This document shows, one piece after another, positions 3,877 to 45,013 of a DNA stretch of 64,000 nt (positions are counted from its first letter, which is position 1; every line of letters starts with the position of its first letter). Under the pieces are notes generated by a model that saw only the letters and a list, made by a program, of their open reading frames with translations, was not told the origin of the DNA and did no database searches. This DNA is from an uncultured Planctomycetales bacterium (GTDB lineage: Bacteria > Planctomycetota > Planctomycetia > Pirellulales > S012-138), in the NCBI GenBank assembly GCA_937982665.1, contig CALJLD010000060.1:16596-80595 (forward strand). The letters run 5' to 3'. The translations under genes were made by a program, and so were the position numbers.

Positions 3877-3951
3877 TTACGCGGCAGGCGGTCACTTGCG
3901 GGAACAAAAACGCAGGCCAAGCCTGCGGTTGAGGACAATGTACATTTGGGA

Positions 3952-5316
3952 TCAAGCCGCCTTCGCGGTGATGCCGGAGGTGTGCTGCAAAGCGTGGGCT
4001 CGCTTGACGGCAACGTCGCTTGTGCCCCAGGCGATGTAGTTGCAAACCTGCGAAAACGCCTCGCGATCAAGCACTCGCCAGCAATCGATGATCGTGCGAT
4101 GTCCGGCCGCGTCTTGCGGCTGAACGGACTTGAACTCGGGGCACGGCAGCGTCAGTACCGCCACGTCAGATTGCTGAACGCACTCGTTCGGCGAGTCCAC
4201 GTAACGCAATGAATCGCCAAACACGCCCCGCGCGGTTTCATTCGCGGCCGGATCATAGGCCACGACATTTGCACCTTCGGCAATCAGGCACTCGGCCAGC
4301 ATCAGGCCTTGGGCTTTCTCGACAAAGTTCGTGTCCGGCTTGTAAGCCAGGCCAAGAATGCCCACAGTGCCGCCAGCCGGCAGGTGCGCGTTGACGGCAT
4401 CGTGTAGCCGCGGCACCTGGTGGCGATTGATTTCGTCCGTGGCGAGTGGCAACGGAGCCGTCACTTGCAACTCTTTGCAGATCGCGGTGATGGCCTTGTT
4501 GTCTCGTGGGAAACAGGGACCGCCGTATCCAACCGAACCCTTGAGGTATTTGCGGCCAATCCGTGTGTCCAATCCCAACGCGTTGGTAACGACGTCGACA
4601 TCGCCGTCATCCAGATGTTCGCAGATTTCCGCGAGCATGTTGGCGTAGGAGATCTTAGTCGTCACAAAGGTGTTCAACGCCAGCTTGGTCAACTCCGCAT
4701 TTGCGAAGCTCATTCGCTGCACCGCGGCATCATTCTCGACGACGCTGCGATAGATGCTCTCGAGCAAACTGCCGGAACGCTCGTCCGATTCCCCAATCAG
4801 GGTGAAGTCAGGGCGAAGGTAATCGCGAATGACGCTGCCCAGCGAAATGAACTCCGGACTGTAGCACAGCCCAAAGTCCTTGCCGCACTTCTTTCCGGAA
4901 ATGCGTTCAATCTCCGGCAAGACTTGCCTGCCTGTCGCGCCCGGCATGACCGTGCTCGTCAGGACGACAACGTGGAACTCATCTTTTTCGGCGATGACTT
5001 CCGCAATTGGACGCACGGCGGAAAACACATAGTCCAAAGAGAAGTGGCCGTTCTCTTGGCTTGGAGTGGGAACAATCAAGAAGCTGAAGTCGCACTCGCG
5101 GACAGCTGTTTTTGTATCTTCCGTTGCGGAAAGATTGCTGCCAGCGGCTTGAATCAATTCTTGCAACCCTGGCTCAAAAACCGGGGCTTGTCCGTCATTA
5201 ATCTTGGCGACGAAGTCCGCGTTCATGTCGACACCAATCACCTGGTGTCCCTTGGACGCGAAACAAGCTGCCATGGGGGAACCCAGTTTCCCCAGGCCAA
5301 TCACCGCGATCTTCAT
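3952..5316 (-). CDS. nucleotide-sugar dehydrogenase (UDP-glucose/GDP-mannose dehydrogenase family)
   Basis: N-terminal MKIAVIGLGKLGSPMA Rossmann motif and catalytic-Cys region GYGGPCFPRDNKA. Start refined to the ATG at 5314-5316. Confidence 0.85.
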   Translation of the reverse strand: MKIAVIGLGKLGSPMAACFASKGHQVIGVDMNADFVAKINDGQAPVFEPGLQELIQAAGSNLSATEDTKTAVRECDFSFLIVPTPSQENGHFSLDYVFSAVRPIAEVIAEKDEFHVVVLTSTVMPGATGRQVLPEIERISGKKCGKDFGLCYSPEFISLGSVIRDYLRPDFTLIGESDERSGSLLESIYRSVVENDAAVQRMSFANAELTKLALNTFVTTKISYANMLAEICEHLDDGDVDVVTNALGLDTRIGRKYLKGSVGYGGPCFPRDNKAITAICKELQVTAPLPLATDEINRHQVPRLHDAVNAHLPAGGTVGILGLAYKPDTNFVEKAQGLMLAECLIAEGANVVAYDPAANETARGVFGDSLRYVDSPNECVQQSDVAVLTLPCPEFKSVQPQDAAGHRTIIDCWRVLDREAFSQVCNYIAWGTSDVAVKRAHALQHTSGITAKAA

Positions 5317-5498
5317 ACTCGCTCCCTCGAGTTTTCCAAGTCGTTGACAGAAGCCGCCGATCATTCGCGGCAGCCGAGAGAGGAGACCTGCGCCAATCTT
5401 CCTTGACTGACGATCCCCCTCTGTGCGGTACGTGAGCAGCGATGTTTAATGCAAAACGAAAAACGCCGCAAGACGGGAACTTTGATCCAACACAAGCA

Positions 5499-6074
5499 TC
5501 AAGTGCTAGCAACCGCCATGTCCAATGCAAAGCACATCACCGCGGTGGCCAACCCGGCGAGGTTTTTAAATTCACCGTTGCGAATTGCTGACTGCAACTC
5601 CGAGGAACTCATCAACTCGGTTTGCAGGTCTTCTGTTTCGTCAACGCGAGGCGCGGCGACCTGTTTCGCGTTCAACGCGAGAAACAAGTGCATGCGTCCG
5701 CAGTGTCGGTTGGCGTCGACAACGAACGCGCCCAACGCTTGCCAGCTATCGCTTTCGTAGCCGGTCTCCTCAAGCAGTTCTCGCTGAGCGGCCGCCAGCG
5801 GCTCCTCGCCTGACTCAATCAGGCCAGCGGGCGGAAGCAAGGTCTCTTCGCCAATACCATGCTTGTATCCACGAACCAGAACGATTCGCCTATCGGCGCG
5901 CTTTGCCAGCACGCTGGCAAAGTCCGGCATCTCGATGCGATAGAAATCGTCAATCACACGCCCGGACGGCAGCGCCACTTCCTGCTGCACGACGCGAAAC
6001 CAAGGGCGCGCGCAAAGCAACTCTCGTTCGCTCCGCGTGTGCCAGGCTCGCGCTGAGTTCGGCCCGCTGGACAT
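5499..6074 (-). CDS. Nudix hydrolase (nucleoside-diphosphate-sugar pyrophosphatase-like)
   Basis: Nudix box GLIESGEEPLAAAQRELLEETGYE. ATG at 6072-6074. Confidence 0.8.
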   Translation of the reverse strand: MSSGPNSARAWHTRSERELLCARPWFRVVQQEVALPSGRVIDDFYRIEMPDFASVLAKRADRRIVLVRGYKHGIGEETLLPPAGLIESGEEPLAAAQRELLEETGYESDSWQALGAFVVDANRHCGRMHLFLALNAKQVAAPRVDETEDLQTELMSSSELQSAIRNGEFKNLAGLATAVMCFALDMAVAST

Positions 6075-35597: not shown

Positions 35598-35639
35598 TTG
35601 ACGACAAGTGTCGTCATTCGTAGACTACTCGTGTCGTCA
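35598..35639 (+). promoter_or_regulatory. putative blaI promoter with BlaI-type operator
   Basis: -35 TTGACG (35598-35603), a 17-nt spacer, -10 TAGACT (35621-35626). A perfect palindrome TGACGACA-AG-TGTCGTCA (35599-35616) fills the spacer. A third half-site TGTCGTCA lies at 35632-35639. The CDS starts at 35666. Confidence 0.5.
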
Positions 35640-35665
35640 ATAACGGACTTGCCACCTTCGACGCT

Positions 35666-36079
35666 ATGAACAAACGCCAACGAGAATCGATCGGCCGTGT
35701 GGAATGGGAGATCCTCCAATTTGTGGCGGACCATCATCCCATCTCCGTTCGCGAAGTTGCCGATCATATGGCCGAAACCTCCGGTCAGGCACGGACAACT
35801 GTACTCACCGTCCTGGAGCGCTTGCGGGCCAAGGGCTACCTCACTCGCCGCAAGAAGGCCGGCGTTAATCACTATTCGCCCAAAGTCAGCAAGTCGGAAC
35901 TCGTGCAGGAAATGGTGGGCGATTTCGTGCAAGGCATGCTCGGCGGCTCCGTCTCGCCGTTCTTCGCCTACTTGGCCGAGTCCGGCGAACTCAGTCCAAA
36001 ACAGCTCTCGGAATTGCAGTCGATTTTGAAAGAACTTGAAGATCGTGACGAAGAAGGGGGACAGCCCGAGGCCGGCTAG
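35666..36079 (+). CDS. blaI: BlaI/MecI/CopY family transcriptional repressor
   Basis: 137 aa with a winged-helix N-terminus EWEILQFVADHHPISVREVADHM....TTVLTVLERLRAKGYL. Followed by an M56 peptidase gene. Confidence 0.85.
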   Translation: MNKRQRESIGRVEWEILQFVADHHPISVREVADHMAETSGQARTTVLTVLERLRAKGYLTRRKKAGVNHYSPKVSKSELVQEMVGDFVQGMLGGSVSPFFAYLAESGELSPKQLSELQSILKELEDRDEEGGQPEAG

Positions 36080-36124
36080 CTGTGCGGCAATGCAAGGTTT
36101 GCCGAATTGAAGATCCGGTCTCTG

Positions 36125-36257
36125 TTTCTGTCCTCAGTCTCCGTCATTCATCCGCTGTCCTCAGTCATTCCTCGTCCATCCTCCGTCATTCCCGCGCAGG
36201 CGGGAATCCAGAGACCAAACGTTCCGCGCTGGATTCCCGCCTGCGCGGGAATGACGG
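36125..36257. repeat. composite intergenic repeat: degenerate direct repeats leading into a perfect 29-bp inverted repeat with nested ATTCCC-N8-GGGAAT hairpins
   Basis: Left arm CCGTCATTCCCGCGCAGGCGGGAATCCAG is at 36183-36211. The right arm at 36229-36257 is its exact reverse complement, with a 17-nt spacer between. Each arm contains its own 8-bp/4-nt-loop hairpin. Upstream, GTCCTCAGTC occurs twice (36130, 36157) and CCGTCATTC twice (36141, 36183). Confidence 0.9.
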
Positions 36258-36348
36258 AACGGGGCAACGAAGCAGGGCAGCACAAAGAGAAACACGACAC
36301 GCCAAGCGACAAACGGCACACCGTGGCACAAGACGATAGAGACACACC

Positions 36349-38595
36349 ATGAATACAGACATCATTGGAACGGACGTCTCGGCACGGGTTGTTGATCAGC
36401 TGGCGACCGCTGCCTGGCAGGGAGGGCTCGCGCTGTTGATCGTCTGGTGTTTGTGCAACGTGTGGAAGAACTGTGCGCCGCGTGTTCGCTGTTGGCTGTG
36501 GCGGATCGCTTTCGCCAAGTTGTTGCTCGCCACAGTTTGGTTGAGTCCCTGGGAATTGGCTGTGTTGCCGGCGGAATCGCCCCAGCCACAGGCGCAGCGC
36601 GAGACCGATGAGTCAGCGTCGGAAAGTGTCAACATGCCGTATGCGGCCGCGAACAACGTGGCCGGCAACAGTAACAACTTCGCTCGTAACAATTCATTCA
36701 AATCCGCGCCTGCTGGCAGTGTTTTTGCCACGCCTGCCAACGCTGGCGATCAGAACACAAACGCATCAGCAACAAGTGCAACGGCAACGCCATTGGTCGC
36801 CAGCCAATCGACAAGACCTGGTTACGCAACCTCCGAACTTGAAACCTCCGAGCTAGAAACTGTCGAGCTCGAACAGGCGGAGCTGGCAGAATCCGCAGCG
36901 GGTGCCGGTTTCCCCGTCAAGCTGGCACTGGCAGGTGTTTGGCTGGTAGGCGTGGTTGTCGGACTGGTCATCCTTTCAAGACAACAGTTCATCGCTTGGA
37001 AACTGCGTCGAACATCAAGCGGCGAGACTTCGTCCGCGCTGTCGGACGAGCTTGTCAGCCTTCGCGGCGCAATCAAGAGGCGGCTATCGCTTGCTCACGC
37101 GCCCCAAGTTCATTATTCGCCTTCCGTGCATGGCCCGATGCTGATTGGGTTTCGCGAACCGCTGGTTTTGCTGCCGCAAAGCTGGCGAGAAGACCCGCAG
37201 CCGGAGTTGCTGCGCATGGCGTTGACTCACGAGTTCGCGCATGTCCGTCGCCGTGACCTGCTTTGGAACTGGTTGCCGGCGGTCGCGCGAATTGTGTTTT
37301 GGTTCCATCCGCTGGTTTGGATTGCCAGTCGGCACTGGAGTTTGGATGTGGAAGAAGCCTGCGACGAGCTTGCGGTCAATGTCGGCCGGTTGCCGCGAGT
37401 TCGCTACGCGGAATTTCTTGTTGGGATTGTCGCGCGTCGTCATGCGGGCTTTGCTCCCATGGCACTTGGCGCCGCCAGCCCATTCTCTCACTTGAAGAGG
37501 AGATTACTCTCGATGAAAAAGCGAAACGATAAACCGGGCAGACTGTGGTTGGCCATGGCCGGCTGCGGATTGCTGGGACTGGGCATTCTTGCGCCTGTGC
37601 AACTCACCGCTCAGGATGCTCCGCCCAATCCGGCGACACAAACCGCCGGCACTTCACAAACAGGCGGCGTTGTCACGCAGCGCTCAAACACGTCTGGTGG
37701 AACCGTGCAATCGGCAGGCGGTGGAACGGGCGTTGTCACGCAACGCTCGGGCGGATCCGGAACGACCGTCCAATCGGCCGGTGGCGGTGGAGGAATTGTC
37801 AGCCAAAGCAGCGGCGCGACTGGTCGTTCGGCCACTTCGCCAGCTGGCGGTGGCGGAGGAGTTTCCGTCCGATCGAACCAAGGTTCAGGAACAACCGTGG
37901 CTTCAGCTGGACGCGGCGATGGAAAAGGCAAGACGACCGTCTCGATTGCGAAAGATGGCAAGTCCATTTCCGTCGAAGTCGAGCCTTCCGATGACAAGGT
38001 TTCCGTAACCGTCACGCGTACCGAAGGCGAAAACAAAACCGTCAACAAGTATTCCTTGGACAGCCTTGATGAGTTGAAGGAAAACGATCTGGAAGCCTAC
38101 GACACCTTCAAGGAACACACTCAACCTGTCGCCGGCACAATTCGCGGCGGTGCGGGTCGGGCGGTTGGCGCCGGACAAAATGTTGGCGGTTCAGTTTCTC
38201 GGGCGTCCGGTGGGGGCGCGGGTCGAGGAAGCAACGCGGAAGGAAGCGGCGGAGGCTCGTTCGGTCGGGCTTCCTCTGGCCAATCCGTGGGTTCCGGCTC
38301 AGGCGGTGGCGCTTCCCGCAGCGGTCAGAATGTGACTGGTGCAAGTTCGTTTGGACGTGGCAGTTCCGGTCAGTCTGTTGCGGGATCCGGAACTGGCAGT
38401 TCCGCAAACGAAGGTGGCTCTGGCTCAAATCAAGCCGGCGCTTCCGGCGGACGCGGCTCGTCCCGGGCGGGCATCAACAGCCTGCTCAAACAACTCAATG
38501 AGCTGCGCGAGAAAAACCAGGACAACCCCGAGGTCGTTAAGGCCATCGATGAACTGGTGCAACAGTTGATGGGCGGCAGATCCAGCGGACGTTAG
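36349..38595 (+). CDS. BlaR1-like M56 family membrane metallopeptidase with long low-complexity C-terminal region
   Basis: HEXXH in HEFAHVRRRDLLWNW and several TM helices. The C-terminal ~330 aa are G/S/T-rich repeats, with no penicillin-binding-type sensor motifs (no SXXK seen). Confidence 0.8.
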   Translation: MNTDIIGTDVSARVVDQLATAAWQGGLALLIVWCLCNVWKNCAPRVRCWLWRIAFAKLLLATVWLSPWELAVLPAESPQPQAQRETDESASESVNMPYAAANNVAGNSNNFARNNSFKSAPAGSVFATPANAGDQNTNASATSATATPLVASQSTRPGYATSELETSELETVELEQAELAESAAGAGFPVKLALAGVWLVGVVVGLVILSRQQFIAWKLRRTSSGETSSALSDELVSLRGAIKRRLSLAHAPQVHYSPSVHGPMLIGFREPLVLLPQSWREDPQPELLRMALTHEFAHVRRRDLLWNWLPAVARIVFWFHPLVWIASRHWSLDVEEACDELAVNVGRLPRVRYAEFLVGIVARRHAGFAPMALGAASPFSHLKRRLLSMKKRNDKPGRLWLAMAGCGLLGLGILAPVQLTAQDAPPNPATQTAGTSQTGGVVTQRSNTSGGTVQSAGGGTGVVTQRSGGSGTTVQSAGGGGGIVSQSSGATGRSATSPAGGGGGVSVRSNQGSGTTVASAGRGDGKGKTTVSIAKDGKSISVEVEPSDDKVSVTVTRTEGENKTVNKYSLDSLDELKENDLEAYDTFKEHTQPVAGTIRGGAGRAVGAGQNVGGSVSRASGGGAGRGSNAEGSGGGSFGRASSGQSVGSGSGGGASRSGQNVTGASSFGRGSSGQSVAGSGTGSSANEGGSGSNQAGASGGRGSSRAGINSLLKQLNELREKNQDNPEVVKAIDELVQQLMGGRSSGR
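37667..37923 (+). repeat. four degenerate ~63-66-nt in-frame tandem repeats inside the M56 gene
   Basis: The units encode GVVTQRSNTSGGTVQSAGGGT / GVVTQRSGGSGTTVQSAGGGGG / IVSQSSGATGRSATSPAGGGGG / VSVRSNQGSGTTVASAGRGDG. Confidence 0.7.
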
Positions 38596-44608: not shown

Positions 44609-45013
44609 GGTGTTTCGCCTCCGTGCGAAAAACGCGCTCAACAATGATTGAAATCAAACCGCAGGCAAATCCGGCCAGCAGCGAAGCGAAAGTCTTGCAA
44701 TTTGCCGCAAATGGGTCAAGCCAAGTCTACGAGTCTGGGCACCACAACGCGAGAGCAAGCGGGAATGACGGGGGACAGCCAATCTAACAGGTGTTCAGCC
44801 GTGCAATCACGGACCGCCTGCGGGCTCTGTGATCAATGTGCGCGCATTGCTGGCACGCATTAGCCGGCGCGATATGCGTGCTTGATTGGTGAACAATCCT
44901 ACATCCGAAAAGTGATGCTTTCGGTCACAATGGAGAGAATCGAAAGGCTCTCCTCGCGATAACTGGCTGGGACAAGTTAAGCCACAGTACAATCTGGCAG
45001 CAGGCATCAACTC

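Follow-up and report, generated by a model that had tools for sequence, protein, structure and literature searches.

A repeat with the sequence features of a CGTC-1 REP doublet, sharing its core with Neisseria dRS3, between blaI and blaR1 of a Pirellulales-like bacterium

Background

The CGTC-1 family of tagged REPs was defined by Di Nocera, De Gregorio & Rocco in 2013, and its members in Neisseria were equated with the dRS3 repeat (PMC3733652). A unit of this family has an unpaired terminal CGTC, with TGTC and CCTC as variants, an 8-bp stem with A-T in the first two positions, a 4-nt loop and a short unpaired tail near CCA (PMC3733652). The units occur mainly as HH dimers, that is with the tags outside, and mostly as homodimers; they are extragenic, are found mostly between unidirectional or convergent ORFs and are present in many copies per genome (PMC3733652). 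The 2013 survey recorded CGTC repeats in Proteobacteria, Chlorobi, Bacteroidetes, Spirochaetes and Thermotogae, and only GTAG repeats in Planctomycetes/PVC, and it described the CGTC REPs as being without a dedicated transposase (PMC3733652).

The 21-mer ATTCCCGCGCAGGCGGGAATC is the commonest 21-mer and the REP seed of N. meningitidis 2594, where it has 241 copies and is the seed of the only REPIN population (Bertels & Rainey, bioRxiv 10.1101/2021.07.10.451892). The decay of the Neisseria REPINs tracks frameshifts in the RAYT gene, and this is the basis for the assignment of the population to a Group-2 RAYT (bioRxiv 10.1101/2021.07.10.451892). As dRS3, the repeats carry the 20-mer ATTCCC-N8-GGGAAT and bound the NIMEs, in which inverted pairs enclose 19-214 bp, usually RS segments of 50-150 bp, often in long arrays (PMC1797815), and they are the site at which the MDA phage integrates (PMC12477760; PMC1797815).

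The REPs, BIMEs and REPIN-RAYT systems of E. coli and Pseudomonas are built on the same plan, as extragenic inverted palindrome pairs that fold into one long hairpin and replicate unit-wise, and their co-transcription with operons allows them to stabilise the mRNA upstream or to attenuate read-through. Stems of this kind, in E. coli REPs as well as in Neisseria repeat elements, can shield the upstream mRNA from 3' exonucleases, act as RNase III cleavage sites or attenuate read-through. The REPs of E. coli and Pseudomonas differ from the CGTC-1 type in their GTAG tag and in having a cognate RAYT that is flanked by the same REPs.

Here we describe a repeat of the CGTC-1 type between a blaI-type and a blaR1-type gene. 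The window, by which we mean the whole 64-kb stretch of DNA that was analysed, encodes a MetRS whose nearest named relative, from a 'Pirellulales bacterium' MAG, is 87% identical, and those of Gimesia and Symmachiella are identical to about 72%, which places the host among the planctomycetes.

Results

A perfect inverted repeat

The repeat finder, run on 35900-36500, returned a perfect inverted repeat with arms of 30 nt each (36182-36211, TCCGTCATTCCCGCGCAGGCGGGAATCCAG, and 36229-36258) that are 100% complementary and lie 17 nt apart, which is slightly longer than the 29-bp repeat first noted at this place. It also confirmed the 8-bp hairpin that had been described for each arm, ATTCCCGC-N4-GCGGGAAT, at 36188-36207 and 36233-36252 (Table 1). 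With up to three mismatches allowed, the 20-mer core has two sites only in the window, both of them in the doublet; the mean in shuffled sequence is 0.01 matches and none of 100 shuffles reaches two, and the pattern ATTCCC-N8-GGGAAT behaves in the same way against shuffles. The doublet is the longest and best inverted repeat of the window, the runner-up having 23 nt at 87%. Extension of the palindrome beyond the 30-nt arms is not significant, with 390 of 500 shuffles scoring at least as high as observed.

An independent ENA contig (L121) is identical in sequence to the repeat of the window, and a Logan contig from another sequencing run (L122) has the left arm, and together they rule out an assembly artefact. 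The Logan contig breaks at the left arm, which could be taken as a sign of multiple copies; we reject this, since a perfect 30-nt inverted repeat suffices to branch a k=31 graph. The ENA assembly of the same organism has breaks at window positions of about 421 and 3910-4276 (contigs NODE_15864 and NODE_280).

Table 1. Coordinates, in the window, of the doublet, its parts and the features around it
Feature	Position	Strand	Details
blaI-type repressor gene, upstream neighbour	35666..36079	+	Penicillinase_R, PF03965, E 1.4e-26
Pyrimidine-rich degenerate direct repeats	36128..36183	+	hold partial REP heads TCCGTCATTC, CAGTCATTCC; repeat finder
Left CGTC-1 REP unit	36184..36211	+	CGTC tag, stem, loop, stem, tail, as in the CGTC-1 family description (PMC3733652)
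Left unit, CGTC tag	36184-36187	+	CGTC
Left unit, 5' stem	36188-36195	+	ATTCCCGC
Left unit, loop	36196-36199	+	GCAG
Left unit, 3' stem	36200-36207	+	GCGGGAAT
Left unit, tail	36208-36211	+	CCAG
17-nt spacer	36212..36228	.	AGACCAAACGTTCCGCG; loop of the long hairpin
Right CGTC-1 REP unit, inverted	36229..36256	-	CTGG tail, ATTCCCGC, CTGC, GCGGGAAT, GACG tag (36253-36256)
A/C/G-rich blaR1 leader, nearly T-free	36259..36348	+	1% T in 36259-36330
blaR1-type M56 sensor-protease gene, downstream neighbour	36349..38595	+	Peptidase_M56, PF05569, E 1.5e-38
Half REP remnant, intergenic	44759..44772	-	CCCGTCATTCCCGC, then TTGC loop; 3' stem lost

The intergenic gap and its flanks

The doublet is extragenic and lies between two co-directional genes, its left arm starting at 36182, 102 nt past the blaI stop, and its right arm ending at 36258, 90 nt ahead of the blaR1 start. 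Upstream of it, CTGTCCTCAGTC is found twice, at 36128 and 36155, and a 21-nt unit CTCCGTCATTC... three times from 36139 with 71-76% identity, and the degenerate direct repeats reported for this side are thus real. The left flank, 36118-36181 with the direct repeats included, consists to 77% of C+T. The gap between the genes was correctly given as 269 nt (36080-36348), but the doublet (77 nt) and the upstream repeats make up 131 nt, about half of it and not most of it as the initial annotation had stated. The ORFs of 40 aa or more that overlap the element number five, where three had been counted, and two, one per strand, do read ...VIPAQAGIQ...IPACAGMT as had been noted. For annotation this means that the five palindrome-derived ORFs across 36082-36365 are not to be called genes, and that the 269-nt gap is accounted for.

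Partial copies of the repeat head are not specific to this locus: among the matches listed, partial head duplications are present at 10 of the 226 doublet ends, while the control orientation gives them at 1 of 226. Tandem partial heads just outside the doublet were observed in L216, where GCGGGAATGACGAACGGT stands three times, and in L169, L170 and L175, as well as at 36128-36181 of the window. They resemble the short repeats that adjoin dRS3 in Neisseria, where partial tandem head copies also stand next to full units.

Upstream of blaI, a triple motif (TTGACGACA / TGTCGTCA / TGTCGTCAA) at 35598-35640 overlaps the sole sigma-70-like promoter match, and this motif is likely to be a BlaI operator.

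Identity of the doublet

Judged by its anatomy, the feature is made up of two CGTC-1-type REP units in head-to-head orientation, a homodimer with the same sequence as Neisseria dRS3, or, put in other terms, a 73-nt non-coding repeat that is bounded by CGTC tetranucleotides and is a REPIN in structure only. Both ends carry the tag, as CGTC on the left and GACG on the right; in both arms the tag is followed by ATTCCCGC, GCAG, GCGGGAAT and CCAG, that is an 8-bp stem beginning with A-T, a 4-nt loop and a CCA-type tail; the tags are on the outside, with stem and loop identical in the two units; and the dimer is extragenic between unidirectionally transcribed ORFs, blaI (+) and then blaR1 (+). A very high similarity across distant hosts is also shared with the CGTC-1 family. 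The spacer of 17 nt differs in being shorter than the usual 20-100 bp.

The 21-mer of the window arm is identical to the Neisseria REPIN seed ATTCCCGCGCAGGCGGGAATC, and the locus has in common with dRS3, the NIMEs and the Neisseria REPIN population both this 20/21-mer core and the arrangement as an inverted pair around a short variable segment. The 25 nt enclosed between the two 20-mers are within the range described for NIMEs, although below the usual one (PMC1797815). Another difference is that the window unit is isolated, while those in Neisseria often form long arrays, and that it is found in an unrelated host with no filamentous phage or IS110/Piv-like gene near it. The two inverted REPs fold into one hairpin, which is the structure of a REPIN, but compared with the systems of E. 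coli and Pseudomonas the unit is of the CGTC-1 type and is without a linked RAYT. No match at the gathering score was found in Rfam anywhere in the window, and a permissive Rfam search returned only generic long hairpins (miRNA precursors) and one partial hit, to Coxiella CbSR3, that is weak at 21 bits against a threshold of 101.

The initial annotation had placed a REP/MITE-like element of the dRS3 sequence class in a planctomycete genome, and the exact 21-mer and the fit to CGTC-1 bear this out. What it said about dRS3, the mosaic elements bounded by it (NIMEs) and the integration of filamentous phages agrees with the literature (PMC1797815, PMC12477760).

Orthologous blaI-blaR1 loci

A protein search with BlaI, combined with contig look-ups, gave three lineages with orthologous blaI-blaR1 pairs, and the N-termini of their BlaR1 proteins are clearly orthologous to that of the window. 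Their BlaI proteins are 88% (L252/L253), 87% (L256) and 80% (L246/L247) identical, and the spacers between the two genes measure 62, 54 and 68 nt, respectively; in L246/L247 the downstream FAD_binding_4 gene is also in the same place. The pattern ATTCCC-N8-GGGAAT is found in none of these three spacers (54-68 nt). Only the last ~20 nt of the window spacer resemble the spacer of the closest orthologue, and some 200 nt of it are lineage-specific, comprising the 77-nt doublet, the pyrimidine-rich left flank with its partial heads and the nearly T-free right flank. Three orthologous spacers of 54-68 nt without the element, as against 269 nt in the window, therefore show the doublet to be a lineage-specific insertion, which by this comparison entered the blaI-blaR1 spacer after the split from the relatives with short spacers, and not a conserved leader or operator. 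The inspection of orthologous spacers had been named in the initial annotation as the check that could overturn its own reading, and the absence of the element from the relatives speaks for that reading. The extra ~130 nt beside the doublet are more than a simple 73-nt insertion accounts for.

Dispersal in other genomes

Species-representative genomes were scanned for GCAG-loop homodimers with spacers of 12-22 nt, the bin purity of the MAGs being taken as given, and the short-spacer doublet was found in at least 118 genomic stretches. Among those listed, at least seven Planctomycetota MAGs have the doublet: Pirellulales SRP263527_co1_258 and Planctomycetaceae AS06rmzACSIP_219 with at least five separate doublet loci each, and a Schlesneria, a Bythopirellula, SZUA-33, Dive96 and a binchicken MAG with one listed stretch each. 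The other hosts among the at least 118 listed are many Alpha-, Beta- and Gammaproteobacteria, Desulfobacterota, a 'Deferribacteres' MAG and one Minisyncoccia MAG. In the last of these (L144, JBAQFI010000012.1), the CGTC-1 doublet is on a 256-kb contig assigned to the candidate phyla radiation, which would be an unexpected host unless the contig was binned wrongly. With BLAST, the doublet was found on plasmids or chromids of Neisseria, Azospirillum, Cupriavidus, sphingomonads and Photobacterium. The single CGTC-1 unit is also present in viral contigs, and among the matches listed there are 13 inverted pairs with the tags outside and one with the tags inside.

Among the matches listed, the spacer is conserved within a genome, in dispersed copies and in both orientations, and between genomes only the arms are shared. 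The AS06 MAG has the spacer GCACTCGGCAAACGCCA and close variants of it in five of the copies listed, and the Deferribacteres MAG has TCAATCGCGCACAGCCC and variants in 10 of the 13 copies listed. At the 234 doublet ends among the matches listed, information content falls from ~1.8 to ~0.1 bits exactly at the C of CGTC, and the GTC of the tag is 98% conserved. Genome-specific conserved spacers and a sharp end at CGTC are what is expected of a mobile unit with defined ends, and the conserved spacers show that the doublets in other genomes replicate as whole units, arms and spacer together.

The window has one doublet and one half-copy (Table 1), and apart from these it has no exact match to the 12-mer CGTCATTCCCGC. 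No CGTC-1 units are present in ~29 kb from the two closest relatives, scans of the viral and metagenome collections gave no copy of the exact spacer AGACCAAACGTTCCGCG, and the host genome is not among the at least 118 stretches listed in the genome scan. The copy number of CGTC-1 in the host genome may be low.

RAYT genes and other genes near the repeats

Relatives of the E. coli RayT and the gonococcal RAYT, searched for with tblastn and a two-sequence profile, were found neither in the window nor in 2.1 Mb of REP-bearing DNA. We also inspected a sample of 80 metagenome loci with a Group-2 RAYT (L263-L342), of which 23 are 81-99% identical to the Neisseria enzyme. Not one of the 80, the 23 Neisseria-type loci included, has CGTC-1 units on both sides of the gene, and GTAG-tagged inverted repeats flank the gene in 16 of the 35 loci having full flanks. 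The gonococcal RAYT (L257, N. gonorrhoeae NZ_CP119142.1 1071363-1074835) has GTAG-tagged palindromes directly on its flanks and a CGTC-1 pair 150-230 nt upstream, on one side only. These results agree with the view of Di Nocera and co-workers that CGTC REPs have no transposase of their own, and they do not fit easily with a Group-2 RAYT as the enzyme assigned to the Neisseria population. When the ORFs of all REP-bearing loci listed were clustered, the recurrent families were phage genes and ABC-transporter ATPases only, and the genes bracketed by two units were, among the loci listed, phage or housekeeping genes save for one IS110 element.

Discussion

The explanation of this locus that we regard as probable, taken as a whole, is that a CGTC-1 doublet was inserted into the blaI-blaR1 spacer of this lineage, that such doublets are spread by an HUH/Y1-type enzyme acting in trans, and that the position in the operon is incidental. 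The doublet and the ~130 nt of degenerate and compositionally odd flank would have been inserted together in the Pirellulales-like lineage. Spread would take place as single-strand cut-and-paste or copying by a RAYT-like HUH/Y1 enzyme that works in trans and cuts at CGTC beside the small hairpin. Such a single-strand mechanism is, going by the anatomy, the most likely one for CGTC-1 doublets, because they have sharp ends at the tag, tagged hairpins as their ends and no target-site duplication, and because they are copied unit-wise.

A variant of this explanation is that the CGTC-1 doublets are moved by a conserved and hitherto unrecognised enzyme, either of another HUH/Y1 class or a recombinase, and a horizontal spread between phyla would also be possible. 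It is suggested by 28-nt arms that are near-invariant across at least four to five phyla while the spacers are genome-specific, and by the lack of CGTC-1 units on both sides of any of the 80 Group-2 RAYTs. HUH/Y1 enzymes of 'class 3' have been reported from Planctomycetes (PMC6006769). We hold this variant to be unlikely, if still worth keeping in mind.

Even in an incidental position the doublet is probably transcribed, as the genes on its two sides are co-directional, and its RNA would form a perfect 30-bp stem. The predicted folds favour the long hairpin, with -65.7 kcal/mol against -26.7 for two small hairpins as RNA and -43.0 against -17.6 as DNA, and the whole 269-nt spacer as RNA reaches -120.7 kcal/mol (z = -7.6). 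By analogy with E. coli REPs and Neisseria repeat elements, possible consequences of such a stem are a block to 3' exonucleases, cleavage by RNase III and a partial attenuation of read-through, each of which would lower blaR1 relative to blaI. A regulatory effect of the doublet on blaI and blaR1 is thus plausible from the predicted fold. An intrinsic terminator is ruled out, since the stem is followed by ACGGGGCAACGAAG with no T/U run, and the scans, which did not call the element as a terminator-like site, also gave no promoter-like match in the stretch from the doublet to blaR1.

A rival explanation is that the host has taken the doublet into use and that selection keeps it between the two cistrons, where processing or attenuation at the site (RNase III, exonuclease barrier or Rho-dependent) sets the ratio of BlaI to BlaR1. 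In its favour are the place within a regulatory gene pair and the perfect 30-bp stem, and REPs in general have a preference for positions downstream of ORFs and are assumed to work at the RNA level (PMC3733652). The arms are still 100% identical, which would mean that the copy is either young or constrained, but a recent insertion explains perfect arms equally well, and the three orthologous operons work without the element. Not a single BlaI or BlaR1 homologue was found in the at least 118 doublet-bearing blocks listed, and the link to the operon is therefore incidental; the doublet is not a purpose-built regulator. This argues against the dedicated uncoupling of repressor and sensor that had been proposed in the initial annotation, and we find a regulator kept by selection quite improbable.

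A third possibility is that the doublet is an attachment site in active use here, the target of an IS110/Piv-type recombinase or of a filamentous phage. For the family as such there is good reason to think of targets. In Ottowia sp. VDI28, an element of the IS110 family (PF01548 + PF02371) interrupts the right arm of a CGTC-1 doublet inside its stem, with GGATTCCC on one side and GCCTGCGCGGGAAT on the other (L132, NZ_CP149820.1 6352001-6360000, at ~4079-5552), with an intact sister doublet having the same spacer at 5722-5800; IS110/Piv-like genes adjoin these repeats in seven Neisseria-type prophage contigs; and the integration of the MDA phage at dRS3 has been mentioned above. The window, however, is without an IS110-like gene, both arms are intact with nothing inserted, and members of the family are potential targets in general, which leaves the position of the doublet here unexplained. 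The recombinase target suggested earlier thus holds for the family and not for this locus, where we consider a site in active use very unlikely.

It is even harder to see the doublet as a classical MITE, i.e. a decayed insertion sequence with TIRs, mobilised by a DDE transposase that duplicates its target site. It is short and non-coding, has inverted-repeat ends and is inserted relative to its relatives, but no direct repeat flanks it (...CATCCTC on the left, GAACGGG... on the right), each 'TIR' is a self-contained hairpin with a 4-nt tag, which is the architecture of a REP, and the spacer is only 17 nt, so that we think this origin extremely unlikely.

BlaI-type repressors bind palindromic operators, and the doublet is a palindrome within the operon, but the chance that it serves the operon as a conserved leader of the ordinary kind, as BlaI operator or as intrinsic terminator is next to nothing, as it is absent from all three orthologous spacers (L246/L247, L252/L253, L256), has the identical sequence in unrelated contexts of several phyla, lacks a T run after the stem, and is separate from the operator-like triple motif (TGTCGTCA) that lies at the promoter-like site upstream of blaI.

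Conclusions

The insertion of a CGTC-1 doublet, incidental in its position, accounts best for the blaI-blaR1 spacer of this bacterium, and it extends the host range of CGTC-1/dRS3 to Planctomycetota, a phylum that is absent from the hosts of this class in the 2013 survey. The literature is split on what moves the CGTC repeats, between "no dedicated transposase" and a "Group-2 RAYT in Neisseria", and the flanks of the RAYT loci bear on this question. If the stem shifts the ratio of repressor to sensor, this lineage and its insertion-free relatives would be a natural experiment on the disturbance that a selfish repeat causes in a sensory operon of two genes.
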